Numbered from the stretch's first letter, positions 23,350 through 53,542 are shown. The stretch is DNA of 62,006 nt from Candidatus Wolframiiraptor sinensis (GCA_023261815.1 JALNKA010000004.1:1-62006); one strand, 5' to 3'. Numbers and translations are program-made. The notes: generated by a model from the letters alone, not told the origin.

Positions 23350-23424
23350 TGCTCCGGCCGGGATTTGAACCCGGGTCACGGGCTCGAAAGGCCCGTATAC
23401 TTGTCCGGGCTATACTACCGGAGC
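23350..23424 (-). tRNA. tRNA-Glu(TTC)
   Basis: GCTCCGG acceptor stem; CGGGC-CT-TTC-GA-GCCCG. Confidence 0.95.
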
Positions 23425-23654
23425 CCGATTAATGCCTGACATCGCGCCCTTTATGAATACTTTTCGCCCGGCTTCCCGCGATGCGGCAGAATTTTTCCGG
23501 AAGAAGTTTAATGGATCACGTGAGCCCATAAATCACATGGTCTATCCGCTCTTAGGTAGGTAGCGTCATGGAGACTAATGTGCTTATCATGGGCTCAATC
23601 TCGAGCTCGCCATCTCTTGATGATTCTTTCGAAGAATCTTCAAAAATCTTCTCC

Positions 23655-23976
23655 AGCTTACATCTCCTAGGAGACCATGCCTCATGCGTCAAGTTATCGA
23701 GTTATGATTTTAAGTGCTTCTACTTTCTGGTGGAAAGCTGCATCCTAAAATCAAAAAGTCTCCAAGGAAGATGGAAAAGAGTGCTTAGGGGGAGAGCGTC
23801 TGGATGGTTCTTAGCCCGCATCTAAAGACCGCCACTCTTCTATAGGAGCATCAAATCTCACGCCACGGGTCTCATCAGGGCTTTTATCCTGCCCCTCCAT
23901 CCGCATAGACCCCACCGCAGGTTTAAGGATTCTTAGTAACCTTCTCAGCCCCTCCCTCCTACACCTAACCCTCGGC
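23655..23976 (-). mobile_element. Degenerate 3' remnant of the IS110-like element (transposase tail, RNA motif, right end)
   Basis: Minus strand encodes PRVRCRREGLRRLLRILK, compared with PRMRHQREVLRRLLSILR at 61.6 kb. RNA motif at 23773-23897. CTCCTAGGAGACC at 23664 resembles CTCCTAGGAAACC at 50208. Confidence 0.8.
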
Positions 23977-24544: not shown

Positions 24545-25489
24545 TTGGATATAAGAGTTGTTGATGTCTTCGCTGGGTGCGGTGGCTTCAGCCTGGGTTT
24601 CGGCGAAGCCGTGAAGGCGGCGATAGAGAATCACCCCCACGTAGTCAAGACCTACATGCGGAATTTTCCATGGGTCTCGGTGTTCCCCGAGGATGCTAAG
24701 CGTGTTTGCGGCAGGTTCATACTGGATGTTTTGGGCGGCGAGGTCGATGTCGTCATAGGCGGCCCGCCATGCGAGCCATTCACCAGCATGAATAAGGGGC
24801 GGAAGAAGGATCCTCTCGATAGGCTTTTGAGCGATCCTCAGGGCAGGCTTGTGATGGAGTTTATCAGGCTCGTGGAGGAGCTTAGGCCCAAGATATTCAT
24901 CATGGAGAACGTGCATGAGCTGGTGGAGGAGCCGCTTGGAAGCCTCCTCAAGAAGTTCTTCGCGAGAATAGGCTACGAGGCTCATTTCAACTTCATTGAG
25001 GCGCACCGCTACGGTGTCCCTTCAAAGAGATACCGGGTATTCATCTCGAATATACGGCTGGATCTCTCGGGGATGGAGGAGAGGCCGAAGAGCGTTGAGG
25101 AGGCATTATCGGGTCTCGGAAACTTCGGCGAGGTTCCCAATCACGTCCCCATCAAAGTAGGCAAGATCAAGCTGAGAAGGATCAGCAGGCTGAAATGGGG
25201 GGAAGCCCTCTACGCATTCAAGGGCTCCTCGGGTAAGATCTACAGGAACTGGGTGAGGCTTCATCCAAAGCATATCGCTCCTACAATTCATGGAAGATCG
25301 CGCTTCATCCACCCATATGAGGATAGGCTACTGACCGTGAGGGAGCAAGCTAGGCTGATGAGCTTCCCCGATAACCACGTCCTCTTCGGGGGAGTAAATG
25401 TTCAATTCGATCAGGTTGGCGAGGCGGTTCCACCGCTCCTAGCGAAGAAGATAGCTAAGCTAGTCTTCGATAAGCTGAATGAGCTTTAA
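24545..25489 (+). CDS. C5 DNA cytosine methyltransferase (orphan)
   Basis: DVFAGCGG, GGPPCE, MENV, R.RVF, LTVREQARLMSFPD, GEAVPP. Confidence 0.92.
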   Translation: MDIRVVDVFAGCGGFSLGFGEAVKAAIENHPHVVKTYMRNFPWVSVFPEDAKRVCGRFILDVLGGEVDVVIGGPPCEPFTSMNKGRKKDPLDRLLSDPQGRLVMEFIRLVEELRPKIFIMENVHELVEEPLGSLLKKFFARIGYEAHFNFIEAHRYGVPSKRYRVFISNIRLDLSGMEERPKSVEEALSGLGNFGEVPNHVPIKVGKIKLRRISRLKWGEALYAFKGSSGKIYRNWVRLHPKHIAPTIHGRSRFIHPYEDRLLTVREQARLMSFPDNHVLFGGVNVQFDQVGEAVPPLLAKKIAKLVFDKLNEL

Positions 25490-36169: not shown

Positions 36170-37069
36170 ATGATGTTTGAGGAATTTCTGGATTTGATAG
36201 AGCGTCTCAGAAAATTAGTGAGCGACTATAGAGTTGATCTGGAGAAGAGCGAGGCGCTAACGCGCTACTGTCTGGTTGATCCATTTCTCAGGGCTTGGGG
36301 CTGGAATCCGGAGAATCCTTCTCATGTTAGGCCTGAATTCGCAACAGAGGCGGGCAGGCCGGATTACGCGCTCCTCATCGATAACAAGCCCGTAATTTAT
36401 GTCGGCGTCAAGGCCTTGGGAAAGCAGGAGAAGATCGAGCAGTACATCAACTACTGCATAACCACCGGCGTGCCGTACCTCATCACGACGGATGACGTGA
36501 AGTGGGAGGTCTACGACACGCACATCCCTAAACCCCTCCCCGAGAAGAAAATAACCGAGTGGGACATAATTAATGATGATCCCGCTGAAATTATCAGAAA
36601 GGCATTTGTGATCTGGAGGCACAATAGGCGAATGCTAGAAGCAGCTGTTCCATTAACTCTGCAGCATAGCAGAATGATTGCGGAGGGAATTAAGGCAGAA
36701 GGGGTGCCGCTGGTGAATGTGAAGGTTGAGCCTGGGAGAAAGCCCCCATACACAAAGTTGATCTTCCCAGATAACAGGTCATATGATATCAGGCATTGGA
36801 GGGATGTTTTTGTGGCCGCGGCCGCATGGCTCATAGATTCTGGGAAAATTTCTAAGCGAGATATGCCCATAAAGCCCGAGCGAGGTAGAGTTAGACGCAT
36901 GGTGAATGATAAGCCGGTGCATGAAGATGGCTCCAAATTTAGAGATCCTAAAAGAGTCGGGGAGTATTATGTGGAGACAAATATAAGCAGTGAGCGCGCG
37001 ATCAAATGGGCGATCATGCTACTTGATAAATTCGGGGTGGACTCTTCTAAAGTCCTTCTTAAAGCCTGA
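36170..37069 (+). CDS. HsdR_N-like restriction-endonuclease-fold protein
   Basis: EALTR..LVDPFL..GW, V.PE, RPDYAL, T.D...W..YD; C-terminal 'W.D.......WL...YYVETN.S' domain. Confidence 0.7.
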   Translation: MMFEEFLDLIERLRKLVSDYRVDLEKSEALTRYCLVDPFLRAWGWNPENPSHVRPEFATEAGRPDYALLIDNKPVIYVGVKALGKQEKIEQYINYCITTGVPYLITTDDVKWEVYDTHIPKPLPEKKITEWDIINDDPAEIIRKAFVIWRHNRRMLEAAVPLTLQHSRMIAEGIKAEGVPLVNVKVEPGRKPPYTKLIFPDNRSYDIRHWRDVFVAAAAWLIDSGKISKRDMPIKPERGRVRRMVNDKPVHEDGSKFRDPKRVGEYYVETNISSERAIKWAIMLLDKFGVDSSKVLLKA

Positions 37070-49722: not shown

Positions 49723-50157
49723 TCATCTACTCATCTCGCGGCTCTCAACCAAATCAGCCTTCATAAGCCTCAGGTGCAGTATACCATTCACGTAGGAGCT
49801 CTCGATGAGCTTGACCCTGCACGGTAGCTTGATCTTTCTCCTAAAGCCTCCTCCGCCCCTGAGAAGCACCCTATCTCCCGAGACCTCGAATGAGACCTCG
49901 CTCTCGGGGCCTGGGACCTCGGCGGTGACGCTTATCAAGCCATCCTCCTCATTGACCTCGACCGGGTATCCTTTTAAGTGCTTCGAGCTCTCCAGCGCCC
50001 TCCTAATCTCCCTGAACCAGTAGATTCCCAGGATTATCAGTATTCCCGTGAGGATTAGGCCTAGGAGTCCCTTCTGGAGCCTTGCGAGTATCGCTAGCCC
50101 CATTAGACCGAGGAGGATGAGCAGCACCACGAGTGAGAGGCCGCTCCTAACCGACAA
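49723..50157 (-). CDS. Membrane-anchored Hsp20/alpha-crystallin-domain protein
   Basis: Two N-terminal TM helices; AEVPG...Y.NG.L C-terminal motif. Confidence 0.7.
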   Translation of the reverse strand: MSVRSGLSLVVLLILLGLMGLAILARLQKGLLGLILTGILIILGIYWFREIRRALESSKHLKGYPVEVNEEDGLISVTAEVPGPESEVSFEVSGDRVLLRGGGGFRRKIKLPCRVKLIESSYVNGILHLRLMKADLVESREMSR

Positions 50158-50196
50158 GGCTCAGCATCCCATCCATGATCATGTGCACCACGGCTT

Positions 50197-50769
50197 AAAT
50201 ATTTAAACTCCTAGGAAACCCTCCCCATCATCCACCTTGCTGAAGAACGTGTTCTCAGCAAGCCTAACTCACATATAGTTCAGGCGACTTTGATATTTTT
50301 AAACTTGGAAAGGGAAAAGGGGTGGTGTCGGGGGGAAGGGACATTTGGACGGCCCTTCACCCGCATCAGGCCATGGACCACTCCTCTACGGGAGCATCAA
50401 ACCTATTATCACAGGTCTCATCAGGGCTTTTATCCTGCCCCTCGCCCTCCTAATGGCCTCATCGTAGAGCCAAAAAACATTCCTCTCCTAGCCAGCATAA
50501 GAGGCGTCAAGGGCAGGGGAAGCATTGTTGTATTATGTTTATCCGCCCGCGATATCCGGTATATACAGGATAATAGTCAAGCCGAGAAGCGATCTGAAGA
50601 TAGAGTATCCCTGTGAGGTTAGGATGGAGCAATAATCGTGATTGACAGGGAGAGGGTTTAAAGAGTGGTCGAGGGATGAGACTAAGCGATCTGATACTTT
50701 TACTGGTAGAGGCTCATGGAAGTGGCTGGGCGCGACCTACCTAGGAGAATTTCATAGGAACTCCACAAA
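50197..50769 (-). mobile_element. Non-autonomous IS110-like element (about 570 bp) carrying the guide-RNA motif but no transposase
   Basis: Imperfect sub-terminal inverted repeats 50209-50224 and 50744-50759 (13/16); AAA at both junctions; RNA motif 50311-50443; guide-flank match at 50766-50775. Confidence 0.7.
50311..50443 (-). ncRNA. Putative bridge/seek-type dual-guide RNA (copy B)
   Basis: Conserved stems shared with 61437-61572 and 23773-23897; variable 11-nt slots TAATAGGTTTG and TCCATGGCCTG. Confidence 0.65.
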
Positions 50770-50770
50770 C

Positions 50771-53542
50771 CTATTTCCCGGCTATCGCGATGTAGTGTAG
50801 CTCCACCACGCCGTTCTCAGAGAATATTGAGCCCACGATCATCTTATTTTCCTCGCTCCAGACCAGCACCCTATCGAGGCTTCTCCCGAAAACCCACTTC
50901 TCCACGAAGCCTGTTACAAGCGCCCTCAGCTCCTCCTCGGAGCCCTCCTCGAAAACCCCTTCCTCGAAGACCAGATGCGAGCTCACCTCCTTCGGATAAG
51001 CAATCTTCACGCCGAGCTCCCGGAGCACGGATAGCGTAAGGTTGTGTATGTCCACCTCCCTCGGCACGGGCGCGTCCTCAAGCTCCCTAAGAAACGCATT
51101 GAAGGATTCTCGAAGGTTCGATCCAAGCCCAATATAGTATCTTCCAGTGAACTCGGCGCCTATAGTCGCTATGGTTCCGAGCTGGGCCACGACCCCGCCC
51201 GCGGGCGACGTGTAAACAGGGATCACGTAGACGAGCTGATCCCCGATGTAGTAGAGGAGCGTATCGCCCATCCTCGGATTCTCTAAGAGCGTTCTGAGCT
51301 TCCTGAACTCCGCGTGCCTCTCGAGGGCCTCCATGGCGGCTGATGGGCCGAGCAGCTTCGTCTCAGCCTCCACGGGAACCTTATAGAAGATTTTCTCGCC
51401 GAGATGCGGATAATCGTTCCTAACGATCATGAAGCCCGCGAGATTTCTTCCCAGAGAACCCTTCAGCTGGAGCGAGAGTATCCCGACGAACTCTGGCCTC
51501 TCGAACCCCGGATACCTGGCGATCACGAAGTATACCTCAACCCCCTCAGGGATCTCGTAAAACTCCCTCGCGTGTATGAATGTCGCCGGATCCTCTACGT
51601 GGTAGTAGTTGAACATCTCCACCTGATACCTGAAGACCTCGGCGGGAAACCTGGTCTGATTCCTCAGCCAATCCGGAACCTCGTCGATCAGTATGTCCTC
51701 GTATGCCGATCTTATCAACTCGCTAAAGAAGTCTCCGCCAGTAATGATCAGCCTCACATCGCCATGATAAATGTCGACCAGAGCATATCCGATGAACCTG
51801 ACGTAGCTACTTCCCTTACTCCAAGGCACATTGCTAGCCGGGATCTTGACTATCAGCGGCATGAGCCAGTAAGTGTTCTCACCATCCGTCACCGGGAACA
51901 TGTCAACGTATTCTCCATTCCACCTGTAGGTGAAGTATGGTAGGAGGAGGCCGAGCCTCTCGTAGATATCCCTGTACCTGAGCAGCTTGACTTCCTTATC
52001 GGGGTATGAGAGGAGGAAGGTGACGTCGTAGAGCCATGTGATCGGCGGGCCGACCACTATGCCCCCTCTACCGTTATATCTCGTCCCGGTTATCTCGTCA
52101 CTCTCCTCCTTCCCGAGTATTATGGCCGCCCAGGTTGTCTTGAGGAGTCCGCCCTCACCATAATAGACCCTCCGCTGCTTGAAGAAGGCGGAGCTATCGA
52201 CTACACTACCATTATTCGCGTCGAGGAGGAGGAAGCCGTTCGGGACATGCGTGTACACGAGGTGCTTATTATACCACACGTTCTCTAGCTGAACCCCCCT
52301 CGGTAGTATCGGCTTCATCGAGGCGCTCCAGTAAAGCCTATTCCCGAACCTGAGTATATCCGAATCCTCGAAGTCCACGTAGGGTATCAGCCCAATCTCC
52401 GGCTTGAGCTTTGTGAACGCTGCATCCCAGTCCCACAGCTTCACCAGCGATAAGTCATCATCATAGGACTTTACGAGGCTTATCCCGCCAGCCTGCCCCC
52501 TCGTGAAATTATAGTGGATTATCGTTATGTCCGAGATGTCCGCGAGATACCTGTTCACCTCTATCTCCTGCTTGATGTATGGGCCGAGCCACTCCACCTT
52601 CCTAGCATCCGCTATCCCATTCTGTATGGCGGCCACGGCTGCCACCATCAGCAGGATGAGCATGAGGGTTCCGAGCTTGATCTTGAAGGCATAGAGGAAT
52701 CCGGGCTTCCTCCTATCTAGGTATATGAAGAGCAGGAGTACCGCTGCGATGGCGAAGGCGCCGAGCACATACACCTTCGTGTTGTAGTCTATGTAGCTGG
52801 AGAAGAAGAGGTTGAAGCCTGTCCATGCTGCCGCGAGGGCTATTAGGGCCTCGACGACCTCGATGGGCGCTCGGAATACGCCGGTCCTGATGTACTCGAC
52901 CACCATCGTGGATAGCGCCTTAACTATGGCCGTTAAGCCGACGAGTATCATCAGCCTCAGGCCGAGGGCGGAGAGGATCGGCGGGGCCAGCAATATGAGA
53001 GCGGGGGCGGCCGAGATAACGCGGAGAGCTGGCGAGACATCGCCAGCCGAGACGGGCGCGAATGGTAAGACGAAAAGCTCCGGGATATTTCGTACTCCAA
53101 GATCCATTCCCTGAAGCGCGGCGGAGACCGCGAGCCCGAAGATGCTGTTGGCGAATATGAGGGCGCCGGCGAGGGTTTTCGTGACCTGCCATGCTAGAAA
53201 CCTGCTTAACGGTAGCCTGTAAGCCGAGAAGTCCAAGTCTTGGAGCTCTAGGTAGCCGGCCCTCCGATAAAACTTCAGGATGAGCGAGATCAGCCAGAGC
53301 GTGAACGACCTCCTGCTCCTAAAATCCACACGGAAGAATGCTATAGCCGATAGTATCAAGCCTCCGATGAGCGAGTAATAGAATGGCCTGACGAAGAGGT
53401 CCCCGAACTCCCAGAAGTTCAGGATCAACTGTACCATCTGGGATAACGTTACGAGGGCTATGATCATGGCGATCAAAACCAATAGGATTAAGCCTACGGG
53501 CCTCCCCCCCCTCGCGGAGCGATAATCATAGCGGAACACCAT
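50771..53542 (-). CDS. UPF0182 family membrane protein
   Basis: Multi-TM N-terminus; WYN.HLVYTH, RVYYGE, R.PA..F..Q...F..YH..DP..F. Confidence 0.85.
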   Translation of the reverse strand: MVFRYDYRSARGGRPVGLILLVLIAMIIALVTLSQMVQLILNFWEFGDLFVRPFYYSLIGGLILSAIAFFRVDFRSRRSFTLWLISLILKFYRRAGYLELQDLDFSAYRLPLSRFLAWQVTKTLAGALIFANSIFGLAVSAALQGMDLGVRNIPELFVLPFAPVSAGDVSPALRVISAAPALILLAPPILSALGLRLMILVGLTAIVKALSTMVVEYIRTGVFRAPIEVVEALIALAAAWTGFNLFFSSYIDYNTKVYVLGAFAIAAVLLLFIYLDRRKPGFLYAFKIKLGTLMLILLMVAAVAAIQNGIADARKVEWLGPYIKQEIEVNRYLADISDITIIHYNFTRGQAGGISLVKSYDDDLSLVKLWDWDAAFTKLKPEIGLIPYVDFEDSDILRFGNRLYWSASMKPILPRGVQLENVWYNKHLVYTHVPNGFLLLDANNGSVVDSSAFFKQRRVYYGEGGLLKTTWAAIILGKEESDEITGTRYNGRGGIVVGPPITWLYDVTFLLSYPDKEVKLLRYRDIYERLGLLLPYFTYRWNGEYVDMFPVTDGENTYWLMPLIVKIPASNVPWSKGSSYVRFIGYALVDIYHGDVRLIITGGDFFSELIRSAYEDILIDEVPDWLRNQTRFPAEVFRYQVEMFNYYHVEDPATFIHAREFYEIPEGVEVYFVIARYPGFERPEFVGILSLQLKGSLGRNLAGFMIVRNDYPHLGEKIFYKVPVEAETKLLGPSAAMEALERHAEFRKLRTLLENPRMGDTLLYYIGDQLVYVIPVYTSPAGGVVAQLGTIATIGAEFTGRYYIGLGSNLRESFNAFLRELEDAPVPREVDIHNLTLSVLRELGVKIAYPKEVSSHLVFEEGVFEEGSEEELRALVTGFVEKWVFGRSLDRVLVWSEENKMIVGSIFSENGVVELHYIAIAGK

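Follow-up and report, generated by a model that had tools for sequence, protein, structure and literature searches.

A 567-bp block that separates two genes of a hot-spring archaeon derives, with good confidence, from an unannotated archaeal RNA-guided mobile element that would operate by the mechanism proposed below, and has lost the protein gene by deletion. That the block derives from an RNA-guided element whose two slots specify the site it occupies is very probable. It lies in the window, by which we mean the whole stretch of 62,006 nucleotides analysed, and retains a structured RNA gene of ~150 nt together with an upstream module; the ORF of ~300 aa that precedes the RNA gene in fuller copies of the element is absent. 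The initial annotation had proposed a mobile block with an RNA gene and no protein gene, and this agrees with the match to covariance model R1 and with the lack of any coding gene in the insert. We found no description of this element family in the literature searched. The element works like a seekRNA or a tigRNA system, yet is a member of neither IS110 nor the TIGR arrays. The two 9-nt guides of its RNA specify the 18-nt site in which the insert sits, and a new relative of the bridge-RNA and TIGR-Tas systems thereby becomes directly testable.

The insert and its empty site

Three congeneric genomes (G005, G009 and G002) read ...GGCTT-AAA-CCTATTT... without interruption where the window carries the insert (Table 1). 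Their sequence is ...GGCTTAAACCTATTT..., with the flanking genes 10–37 nt apart. This is exactly the empty site predicted by the initial annotation, and the boundaries fall on the AAA triplets noted there, at 50197-50199 and 50767-50769. Because AAA stands on both sides, each insert boundary is uncertain by 3 nt. Contigs from four hot-spring metagenome runs bridge both junctions. The occupied site, CCACGGCTT/AAACCTATT, lies at the UPF0182 stop codon, and the predicted target reads CCACGGCTTAAACCTATT in its continuous form.

Table 1. Features of the insert, its flanks and the further copies in the window, numbered from the first letter of the window
Feature	Position	Strand	Basis or remark
Mobile insert, 567 bp	50200..50766	-	block missing at G005:C24, G009:C19, G002:C7
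Guide-RNA gene (module A)	50303..50455	-	covariance model R1: 132 bits, E 3e-40
Slot 1, RNA AAUAGGUUU	50399..50407	-	same as minus strand of 50767-50775
Slot 2, RNA CCAUGGCCU	50368..50376	-	7/9 identical to + strand of 50188-50196
Module B, conserved noncoding, left-end-proximal; upstream of ORF in fuller copies	50489..50719	-	80% identity to C28:41174-41412
Right-end tail, decayed upstream region and first ~24 codons of PCC-domain gene	50208..50293	-	78% identity to C10:163078-163164
Left-end tail, decayed fragment like S-adenosylmethionine decarboxylase gene	50709..50756	+	85% identity to C10:3282-3327
Target half-site AAACCTATT, left flank in element's sense	50767..50775	.	overlaps TAG stop of UPF0182 gene (50771-50773)
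Target half-site CCACGGCTT, right flank in element's sense	50188..50196	.	31 nt past start codon of HSP20-like ORF
HSP20-like ORF	49723-50157	-	flanking gene
Second window copy	61431..62006	-	RNA gene 61431-61582, R1 143.5 bits
Third window copy, ~510 bp, beside tRNA gene	23454..23964	-	RNA gene 23759-23909, R1 113 bits

Module B has about 10 further copies, some of them upstream of ORF remnants. Both tails of the insert resemble host genes. The counterpart of the right-end tail sits within an ORF with PF03479 (E 2e-22), and that of the left-end tail within an ORF with PF02675 (E 3e-39); the PCC-like tail is not common to other copies of the element. From copy to copy the tails vary in sequence and in length (about 0–300 nt), and the termini are not conserved. 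The imperfect subterminal inverted repeats described in the initial annotation are present in this copy (12/16 positions, 8–25 nt from either end; 20 of 2000 shuffles reached this score), but they are not a feature of the family, as none of three other copies with known ends has one. Both arms fall inside the fragments that resemble unrelated host genes, and the repeats of the window copy are probably fortuitous.

The guide RNA and the slot-flank rule

The guide RNA is a nested hairpin (helices P1–P3) with an internal loop in which two 9-nt slots surround a distal hairpin, and the 3' end of its gene is a pyrimidine/T-run. RNAalifold assigned -36.7 kcal/mol to the sense strand versus -18.3 to the antisense strand. 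Covariation follows this fold: 93.7% of cells are paired (43–52% in slid controls), and 14 cells of the alignment changed on both sides, a number reached by none of 500 shuffles. The genome contains 19 copies of the RNA (nhmmer E ≤ 1.3e-19; also R1), each with two hypervariable 9-nt slots in the frame GUGRU...GAUGC. Among 16 aligned copies the slots hold fixed scaffold positions and are 9 nt long in 27 of 32 cases, 10 nt in four and 8 nt in one. Slot 1 is framed by CUGUGAU and GAUGCUCC, common to all copies, and slot 2 by GGAGUGGU and GAUGCGGG; a second variable loop was not found in the RNA. A search of Rfam gave no family, whether the gathering score or E ≤ 10 served as the threshold, and no snoRNA match.

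The initial annotation had noticed that slot 1 matches one insertion flank and slot 2 the other, and both observations stand. When both strands of the window are searched, CAAACCTATT occurs at 50398-50407 and 50766-50775 only (2 matches versus 0.02 expected), and none of 100 dinucleotide-preserving shuffles reached two. By its sequence, slot 1 would pair with the + strand of the 50767-50775 flank. On the opposite side, TCCATGGCCTG (RNA sense) shares 7/11 identities with the + strand of 50187-50197, with U.G and G.T at two positions. Slot 2 proper has two mismatches to its own flank and, with the position given by the empty site, its 7/9 match to 50188-50196 has a binomial chance of about 1.3e-3. 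On this side, the pairing partner of the slot would be the minus strand.

The same relationship holds across the family. Comparison of 13 of the 19 copies with relatives gave the site of 11. Without exception, these 11 elements sit precisely between a pair of 9-mers: one slot reappears as one 9-mer, and the second slot reappears in reverse complement as the other 9-mer. Since one slot is direct and the other reverse-complement to the flanks, the slots pair with opposite strands, as the initial annotation had suggested for target guides. Ten of these copies keep their own junctions, with the insert between the 9-mers; for C12, the intact autonomous copy, the relatives' site shows the 9-mers side by side. 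Each end of the element can be faced by slot 1 or by slot 2: slot 1 equals the left flank in 10 copies (class I), and seven copies belong to class II. The two guides match 9/9 and 7/9 in the window copy (RNA gene at 50303), 9/9 and 9/9 in C23, C14_9088, C9_60474 and C10_87920, 8/9 and 9/9 in C5_34148 and C12, 9/9 and 6/8 in the third window copy (RNA gene at 23759), and 8/9 and 9/10 in C32. C4_24629 and C14_3515 have a 9/9 match for slot 2, with the left flank fused at slot 1. The two sites that were not recovered belong to C4_36514, the flanks of which lie on different contigs in relatives, and to C9_196167, which has no synteny there. At loci L107 and L112, which belong to more distant protein subfamilies, candidate slots had no flank match of at least 8 nt within about 1.4 kb.

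A permutation control separates own from foreign flanks. The reverse complement of a slot recurs over at least 9 nt within 75 nt downstream in 10/19 own pairings versus 2/342 cross pairings, and over at least 8 nt in 12/19 versus 9/342; in direct orientation a downstream match of at least 8 nt was found in 0/19 own pairings. The reverse-complement matches follow the scaffold at a distance of 0–142 nt on the same strand, where a read-through transcript could fold back, and one could read them as cis structure of an RNA with a 3' extension, or as chance. The permutation and shuffle controls exclude chance. Pairing in cis is not available to the other slot, which matches the opposite flank in direct orientation, and the matched 9-mers are adjacent host sequence in insert-free relatives. 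These empty sites refute the cis-pairing or chance reading of the slots, to which we assign next to no probability.

The site of the window copy is also occupied in G007, by a distantly related autonomous element whose two slots match it over 10 and 12 nt. That element has an 8-bp junction duplication, whereas overlaps in the family of the window copy span 0–4 nt (0 nt in C10; 2 nt in C23; 3 nt in the window copy, C14_9088 and C14_3515; 4 nt in C4_24629).

The element protein and known RNA-guided systems

An intact ORF of 303 aa lies at C12:672-1580. AlphaFold2 (pLDDT 92) predicts for the element protein a RuvC-like domain, a coiled coil and an all-helical Nop/TasR-like C-terminal domain. The best two Foldseek matches of this model are chains A and B of TasR (9mty; E 2e-6 and 5e-6, TM 0.57–0.60). 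The model also matches IS621 (8wt6_C; E 2e-5, TM 0.55) and ISCro4 (9t56; E 5e-5) over the full length, with TM 0.54–0.55 for this pair. D8, D45, D96 and D99 do not vary among 40 sequences, and conservation of E41 reaches at least 90%; these acidic residues would be equivalent to the IS621 set.

The assignment to IS110/IS1111 made in the initial annotation is not supported by the comparisons. An ordinary member of that group, with a seekRNA and serine-recombinase-like DEDD/Ser chemistry, would account for the RNA downstream of the ORF, as in IS1111, for guides that match both target strands, and for a fold like IS621 and ISCro4. A faint match to NCBIfam NF033542 in 9 of 40 members of the family (10 bits versus a cut-off of 140, at a best E of 0.012) and the nearest named ESM-Atlas clusters, which carry PF02371 and PF01548 at 0.93–0.94, point the same way. 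Against this, no Pfam family, PF01548 and PF02371 included, matched the 303-aa copy at E ≤ 1 or the window fragment at E ≤ 0.01. PF02371 gave no match in the whole genome translated in six frames; it is present in 7/121 genomes of the phylum and in 6/14 control genomes. Alignment by hhalign to five canonical archaeal IS110 proteins returned a probability of 1%. The G--P----SG position is not conserved: the residue after GLY(K)P varies, and the sole SG reads S/N/Q/G across members. The predicted model has no strand after residue 117 and lacks the serine beta-finger, unlike a canonical archaeal IS110 protein modelled in the same way as a control, which shows a hairpin (E273-278/E281-287) with invariant S278-G279. 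The family also has neither a shared core nor conserved ends. The absence of a conserved serine and of the beta-finger, together with the lack of similarity to canonical IS110 at the profile level, rules out the published phosphoserine route, and we consider ordinary IS110/IS1111 membership improbable.

In the IS1111 elements ISEc11, ISPa11 and ISKpn4, as reported by Siddiquee et al. (2024, PMC11187229), a short seekRNA carries two segments, one per target strand; donor flanks must match the same guides, and close relatives are redirected by changes to the guide segments alone. Set beside that account, the present element likewise has its RNA gene downstream of the protein gene and two guide segments that address both target strands. 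Unlike IS1111 as portrayed there, its protein has neither the PF01548/PF02371 signature nor an SG finger, and its C-terminal domain is predicted to be all-helical. Family-wide subterminal inverted repeats are missing, and the ends, which are not conserved, contain pieces of host genes. One family includes both guide orders, and every one of the 19 copies in the genome has a target of its own.

The bridge recombinases of IS621/IS110, with their bridge RNA, were reportedly described by Durrant et al. in 2024. The account of such enzymes (PDB 8wt6, 9t56) by Hiraizumi et al. (2026, PMC13626964) features a second, donor-binding loop and a core shared with the target. The element has in common with them the RuvC-like domain, the coiled coil, an RNA-binding domain and guides on opposite strands either side of the crossover; it differs from that description in having one variable loop, no shared core (0–4 nt overlap) and no serine finger. 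A further parallel is found in ISPpu9, for which Pares-Guillen et al. (2025, PMC12288879) report solitary ssr9 RNA modules that are thought to use the element's transposase. In the account given there Ssr9 is dispensable for transposition and no guide function is ascribed to it, whereas the RNA of the window copy carries guides that fit its own flanks.

TasR is presented by Faure et al. (2025, PMC12045711) as a nuclease that leaves 8-nt 3' overhangs; its two spacers (9+9 nt) address the two strands of a contiguous 18-bp target and can be exchanged. The TIGR guides lie in tandem arrays and, once processed, measure 36 nt. TasR (PDB 9mty) is the best fold match of the element protein and about equal to it in length, and it has the same symmetric pair of 9-nt guides on an 18-bp site. 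Like the TIGR RNA, the element RNA is pseudo-symmetric, with short conserved motifs around each guide. Unlike the TIGR-Tas systems of that report, the element has a single guide unit of ~135–150 nt that lies in a mobile insert and overlaps the protein gene at its end; the guides are aimed at the element's own insertion site. No tandem array was found: the 19 RNA units are solitary at separate loci, and Tandem Repeats Finder returned one trivial 21-nt repeat in the window.

Some motifs of the RNA may recall a box C/D sRNA, in which box C (RUGAUGA) and box D (CUGA) flank guides of 10–12 nt to rRNA or tRNA. CUGAUGA is nearly invariant 5' of helix P3, GUGA stands 3' of this helix and opposite, across P2/P3, and a YUGA-like motif follows each guide. 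The element RNA is much longer than a box C/D sRNA. Unlike the Nop5/C/D system, the element has conserved acidic RuvC residues, and its guides correspond to the flanking DNA instead of rRNA. Vaysset et al. (bioRxiv 10.1101/2024.06.21.599552) propose a link between Nop5 and IS110 and describe Nop5 as lacking the serine beta-sheet; the C-terminal domain modelled here is likewise all-helical and devoid of this sheet.

Proposed movement and loss of the protein gene

We propose that the full element consists of a variable left tail, module B, the ~300-aa ORF, an RNA gene of ~135–150 nt that overlaps the ORF's last codons, and a variable right tail. The RNA, presumably transcribed from the minus strand and bound by the element protein, would present in the internal loop of the nested hairpin two 9-nt guides, each between GUGRU and GAUGC; this pseudo-symmetric layout would suit a protein dimer. 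One guide would pair with the left 9-mer of the 18-bp site on one strand and the other with the right 9-mer on the opposite strand; the 3' ends of the guides would meet at the centre, usually TT/AA. The DNA would be broken and rejoined exactly at this point with no loss of target bases and no fixed duplication. The element would not need conserved ends, and the limits of the mobile unit would thus be set by guide-flank pairing, as in IS1111 seekRNA donors. A copy devoid of the ORF would depend on protein supplied in trans; the intact C12 copy (303 aa) is one possible source.

Whether such conservative recombination at the centre of the site takes place, rather than nuclease cutting and repair, we judge to be evenly balanced. 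A TasR-like RNA-guided nuclease could cut empty sites and home by homologous repair, with new sites reached via rare illegitimate events. The TasR fold match and the absence of the serine finger would fit such a nuclease, as would the 9+9 guides, which address the two strands of one contiguous 18-bp site; the 10 class I and 7 class II copies recall the symmetry of TasR spacers A and B, and the 8-bp duplication in G007 is as long as the 8-nt stagger reported for TasR. If breaks with such a stagger were end-joined, however, 8-bp duplications or losses should result, whereas the ten kept junctions are centred exactly on the 18-bp site with both 9-mers intact and 0–4 nt of overlap. Unlike the products expected of the TasR nuclease as published, these junctions look like conservative insertion. 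Moreover, at least 11 different sites are occupied in one 1.18-Mb genome, and TasR systems are described as arrays and not as single units within inserts, while the window has no array. We regard homing by a nuclease as a tentative alternative.

A separate question is when the protein gene disappeared. We moderately favour a full-length insertion whose ORF was lost in place; that the copy was already devoid of its protein gene when it moved is conceivable, if somewhat short of probable. The initial annotation had read the block as a MITE that borrows its recombinase in trans. In a true MITE the protein-less unit itself would have transposed, guided by its own RNA and served by the protein of an autonomous copy. 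The window copy does retain module B and an intact 132-bit RNA gene whose guides fit the flanks, a second copy (C23) likewise consists of modules B and A without the ORF, and an intact ORF is available at C12. In the seekRNA study cargo was moved between element ends with protein and RNA given separately (PMC11187229). On the other side, protein-less copies share neither a deletion junction nor tails, which fits independent decay in place, and a full-length insertion with later loss of the ORF predicts the identical guide-flank match. Several copies with the same internal deletion and ends would mark a MITE; for the window copy no second one was found. A BLAST search of the block against its own genome gave separate matches to modules A and B only, with the A–B junction and the tails at no other locus. 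Decay of a full-length insertion in place is at least as likely as a trans-mobilised MITE, which we hold to be possible but doubtful.

The remaining copies illustrate different states of the element. In the window copy module B is fused to the terminal ~35 nt of the ORF; C23 retains ~130 nt, and other copies are truncated differently. The second window copy, source of the 61.5-kb protein named in the initial annotation, has its RNA gene directly 3' of the ORF and overlapping the ORF end. The ORF (61548-62006) is cut by the contig end, and the remaining fragment is 63–76% identical to the C12, C14 and C18 copies; the reverse complement of slot 1 stands 11 nt beyond the scaffold. The third window copy has lost its left end and carries a right-end tail of about 300 nt. 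Its empty site is present in G007, G002 and G005, where the reverse complement of slot 1, AAATCTCAC, matches 9/9.

The insert and its empty site

The source genome of the window measures 1.18 Mb in 33 contigs and is 92% complete; the window is its contig C33. Named homologues of the window proteins come from Nitrososphaerota and from Wolframiiraptor-type archaeal metagenome-assembled genomes (MAGs). The sequencing runs that contain this stretch are DNA runs from hot-spring metagenomes, and no RNA run is listed among them.

The flanks of the window insert were searched against 40 relatives. In three congeners (G005, G009 and G002) the flanking genes adjoin with 10-37 nt between them (sequence GGCTTAAACCTATTT). 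The filled site in the window reads GGCTTAAA, then the insert, then AAACCTATTT. Comparison of the filled with the empty sites sets the limits of the insert at 50200-50766, give or take the shared AAA that is present at both junctions, as the initial annotation had noted. That annotation had also predicted the empty site and proposed a search for relatives without the insert; the predicted site is indeed uninterrupted in all three congeners. Its claim that slot 1, one of two hypervariable guide segments in the RNA gene of the insert, is repeated at the flank is borne out as well: CAAACCTATT occurs within the window solely at 50398-50407 and 50766-50775, against an expectation of 0.02. Slot 2 and the other flank, compared in opposite senses, share 7 of 11 positions.

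Contigs from four metagenome runs (four studies), some at ~96% identity, bridge both junctions, so we can conclude that the insert is real and common to related strains. No contig that skips the insert, and hence no empty allele, was seen in the assembled contigs of four DNA runs. Over the conserved scaffold (50393-50453), metagenome contig depth rises 4-9-fold, and loose ends cluster at 50406-50411 and 50443; other copies in the community thus diverge exactly at slot 1.

Features of the insert and its surroundings in the window
Feature	Position	Strand	Remarks
HSP20-like ORF	49723-50157	minus	Left neighbour of the 613-bp gap that holds the block
End piece	50208-50293		Similar to the beginning of a PCC-domain gene, including the upstream A/T-rich box; decayed; absent from other copies
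Module A (guide-RNA gene)	50297-50470		Repeated in genome
Module B (upstream non-coding module)	50489-50719		Repeated in genome
End piece	50709-50756		Resembles part of an S-adenosylmethionine (AdoMet) decarboxylase gene; decayed; absent from other copies
UPF0182 gene	50771-53542	minus	PF03699, E 2e-37; other neighbour of the 613-bp gap
Putative target site of the window-copy guide RNA			CCACGGCTTAAACCTATT

Slots and flanks across the copies

Module A occurs in 19 copies in the genome, by nhmmer and by covariance model alike. Most copies carry the reverse complement of one slot a short way past the scaffold; it extends over at least 9 nt in 10 of 19 own pairings versus 2 of 342 cross pairings, and none of the 19 copies reaches a direct-orientation slot match of 8 nt. 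Comparison of 13 copies with close relatives recovered the uninterrupted site for 11. All ten copies that have kept their junctions are inserted exactly between two 9-mers, one of which equals one slot and the other the reverse complement of the other slot. The copy with the intact ORF (contig C12) has partly lost its own right half-site, and its two 9-mers adjoin in the uninterrupted site of relatives. The fit of slots to flanks that the initial annotation described holds in the 11 recovered sites.

Both slots match their flanks over 9/9 positions in four copies (C23, C14_9088, C9_60474 and C10_87920). Values of 6/8 to 9/9 per slot are found in five others, among them the intact C12 copy and the window copy (9/9 and 7/9). 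Since one 9-mer is direct and the other reverse-complemented, the guides would pair with opposite strands. Judged from these sequences, the 3' ends of the paired guides would meet at the centre of the site, most often between TT and AA. The left flank fits slot 1 in ten copies (class I) and slot 2 in seven (class II); ORF-bearing copies occur in both classes alike.

The junction overlap is 0-4 nt and the termini vary from copy to copy, so a fixed duplication, a shared core and a conserved end are all absent. The subterminal inverted repeat reported for the window copy is present there (12/16; a score reached by 20 of 2000 shuffles), but such repeats were rejected as end signals because they are not a feature of the family. 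A donor-binding loop was also discarded: the conserved sequences of the internal loops have, by eye, no partner at the ends, and the ends themselves are not conserved. In C9_60474 and C23, which have related scaffolds, the slots are alike at 5/9 and 6/9 positions. This would fit guides that drift through near-cognate sites to new targets.

The guide RNA and the anatomy of the element

The RNA scaffold is common to the aligned copies and holds both slots, each with GUGRU on its 5' side and GAUGC on its 3' side. Among the 32 slots of 16 aligned copies, 27 are 9 nt long, four 10 nt and one 8 nt. RNAalifold favours the ORF-sense strand (-36.7 vs -18.3 kcal/mol for the antisense strand), and the consensus fold consists of three nested helices with a distal hairpin between the slots. 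In the consensus helices 93.7% of cells are paired, compared with 43-52% in slid controls. Covariation is seen at six pairs, with 14 cells altered on both sides, a cell count reached by none of 500 shuffles. The 5' strand of the outer helix doubles as the final codons of the ORF, and a T-run, near 50315 in the window copy, closes the scaffold at its 3' end; T-runs terminate transcription by archaeal RNA polymerase. At gathering score, Rfam finds five tRNAs and nothing else in the whole window, and over 50000-51000 it gives no match at E <= 10. R1, our covariance model of the guide RNA, was also run on 34 further genomes from the taxonomic family; six gave matches, all of them weak (22-36 bits). 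A weak partial R1 match to the 3' tail of the RNA (12 bits, E 0.05) lies in a DNA ligase region of the window (2938-2999).

BLAST against the organism's own genome (G000) splits the block into four parts, two repeated modules and two end pieces (see table). The host-gene-like sequence of the end pieces suggests that host DNA flanking an earlier location travelled with the element. At eight loci, module A lies directly behind an ORF of ~300 aa or its remains, as found by tblastn with the ORF fragment of the window. One of these ORFs is uninterrupted within its contig (C12:672-1580, 303 aa), and several others are cut by contig ends, for example the window's own at 61548-62006. In ORF-bearing copies module B is located upstream of the ORF. 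In the window block both modules are kept and the ORF is reduced to its last ~35 nt; the block is thus module B plus module A without the ORF. The initial annotation, which saw a protein-less unit here, was right in this respect. Its further reading, a MITE-like element that moves with a recombinase borrowed in trans, is disfavoured: the deletion differs in every protein-less copy, and we therefore favour loss of the ORF in place over movement without it. Insertion of an A+B element inside a small element already in place was considered too and rejected, because slot 1 fits the outer junction set by the empty sites.

Several copies are irregular. Two of them, C14_3515 (C14:3565-3657) and C4_24629 (C4:~24650-24822), retain only the 3' half of the RNA gene, with the left host flank fused at slot 1, as expected of a deletion that runs from the flank to the slot of identical sequence. 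At C9:60322-61128 the RNA module and ~40 nt of right flank stand in inverse orientation to module B and the left end; in the uninterrupted site of the C9 copy in G005 and G007, both slots still match over 9/9. The flanks of the copy at C4:36505-37199 lie on different contigs in four relatives, so that a synteny break coincides with the element. In C12:1-650, upstream of the sole intact ORF, both strands hold long open frames that overlap and are rich in Gly, Pro, Arg and Ala. Module B has no match there; the region may result from an assembly join or represent another kind of left end. A third window copy (23350-23964 region) is separated by 29 nt from a tRNA gene (23350-23424) and has an unusually long right tail of ~300 nt. 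Relative to G007, G009 and G002, a second insertion of ~780 bp (C10:88550-89414) is found 335 bp downstream of the C10 element. A short repeated module with GGACTCCGAGGGC stands beside element copies at C4:~48-195 (upstream), C9:~60900-61000 and C4:~36670-36750.

The protein family and its affinities

One collection holds 90 clusters of the protein family, and another, of 1.8 billion, holds 63 representatives. All members are unnamed, lack a Pfam domain and come from archaeal MAGs. Within the class, the family profile has matches in 24 of 76 genomes, frequently in many copies. Pfam, NCBIfam and PDB sequence searches with the protein gave no significant match. The AlphaFold2 model is confident (pLDDT 92), and only four PDB chains match it at E <= 1e-3, namely two TasR, IS621 and ISCro4 (whole-length TM 0.54-0.60). 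D8, E41, D45, D96 and D99 form a conserved acidic set, S215 and Y226 are conserved too, and the C-terminal domain is modelled entirely as helices. In the ESM Atlas, IS110-annotated clusters follow next after the family's own (0.93-0.94), which is a lead only.

The initial annotation took IS110/IS1111 as its model for the element, and membership of that family is not supported. The family has no conserved serine at the G--P----SG position of IS110 proteins, PF02371 has no match in this genome, and a profile of canonical archaeal IS110 proteins shows no similarity to the family profile (hhalign probability 1%). Five such proteins, retrieved with PF02371, served as the control, and a control IS110 model made in the same way displays the expected hairpin with the invariant S278-G279.

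As described in PMC11187229, IS1111 seekRNAs are encoded downstream of the gene, match one top and one bottom strand and require donor flanks that fit the guides; in IS110-type elements the two matches follow in the opposite order. The family works like a seekRNA element, because its guides aim at the element's own insertion site and flank pairing sets its limits. Its fold, its 9+9 guides and their symmetry resemble those of TasR. PMC12045711 describes two 9-nt TasR spacers on opposite strands of an 18-bp site, tolerance of their swap and a cut with an 8-nt stagger. It does not have the full set of defining features of either the seekRNA (IS110/IS1111) family or the TasR family. Within their limited literature coverage, our searches did not turn up any account of the family described here.

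Two discoveries in this area are recent: RNA-guided insertion of DNA, by bridge RNA and seekRNA, dates from 2024, and the dual-spacer targeting of TIGR-Tas from 2025. It is possible, if somewhat doubtful, that we are dealing with a system for RNA-guided DNA insertion that is native to archaea, TasR-like and serine-less, and a living intermediate between TIGR-Tas nucleases, the bridge recombinases of IS110 and the box C/D particles of Nop5. Such a system would have no fixed ends; since its limits would be set solely by the pairing of two 9-nt guides with the flanks, it could carry neighbouring host DNA and insert in either orientation relative to the guides. Vaysset et al. asked whether an archaeal lineage lies between IS110 and Nop5; their preprint notes that Nop5 lacks the serine beta-sheet and reports no archaeal IS110 clade ancestral to Nop5 (bioRxiv 10.1101/2024.06.21.599552). 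The family bears on this question by combining a conserved RuvC acidic set and a Nop5/TasR-like helical domain with the lack of an IS110 serine finger. The published surveys consulted for their methods chose candidates partly or wholly by Pfam IS110 profiles and so are likely to miss it. To the field it offers a compact 300-aa thermophile protein, one RNA of ~140 nt whose two 9-nt guide slots are clearly bounded, and a ready-made specificity table of 11 natural guide pairs with verified 18-bp sites, from one genome and in both guide orders. For genome biology, it displays guide-bearing remnants, flank-to-identical-slot deletions, host-gene fragments in tails and rearrangements at element copies.

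A distantly related autonomous element occupies the same intergenic site in the same orientation in congener G007 (locus L031, G007:C4 ~7305-8480). Its ORF, of 295 aa, is a distant homologue of that in the window family; its RNA, built on a different scaffold, has a perfect stem of 14 bp and two slots of greater length, which fit the site over 10 and 12 nt. An 8-bp duplication (AAACCTAT) is present at the junctions of this element. The idea drawn from this element, an 8-bp target duplication by a TasR-like stagger, was rejected for the window family, in which overlaps are 0-4 nt and both 9-mers are intact. Automatic slot search in distant subfamilies recovered mostly RNA stems. Candidate slots of L107 and L112, two loci of such subfamilies, have no flank match of at least 8 nt, L102 has one of 7-8 nt, and in L108 both half-sites are adjacent, just beyond the right end. 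In the organism's own genome, the protein superfamily has additional members, more distant paralogues or fragments, at C17:28909-29556, C15:2172-2651 (open frames of 321-325 aa at these two) and C14:33730-34147, so more than one subfamily coexists there.
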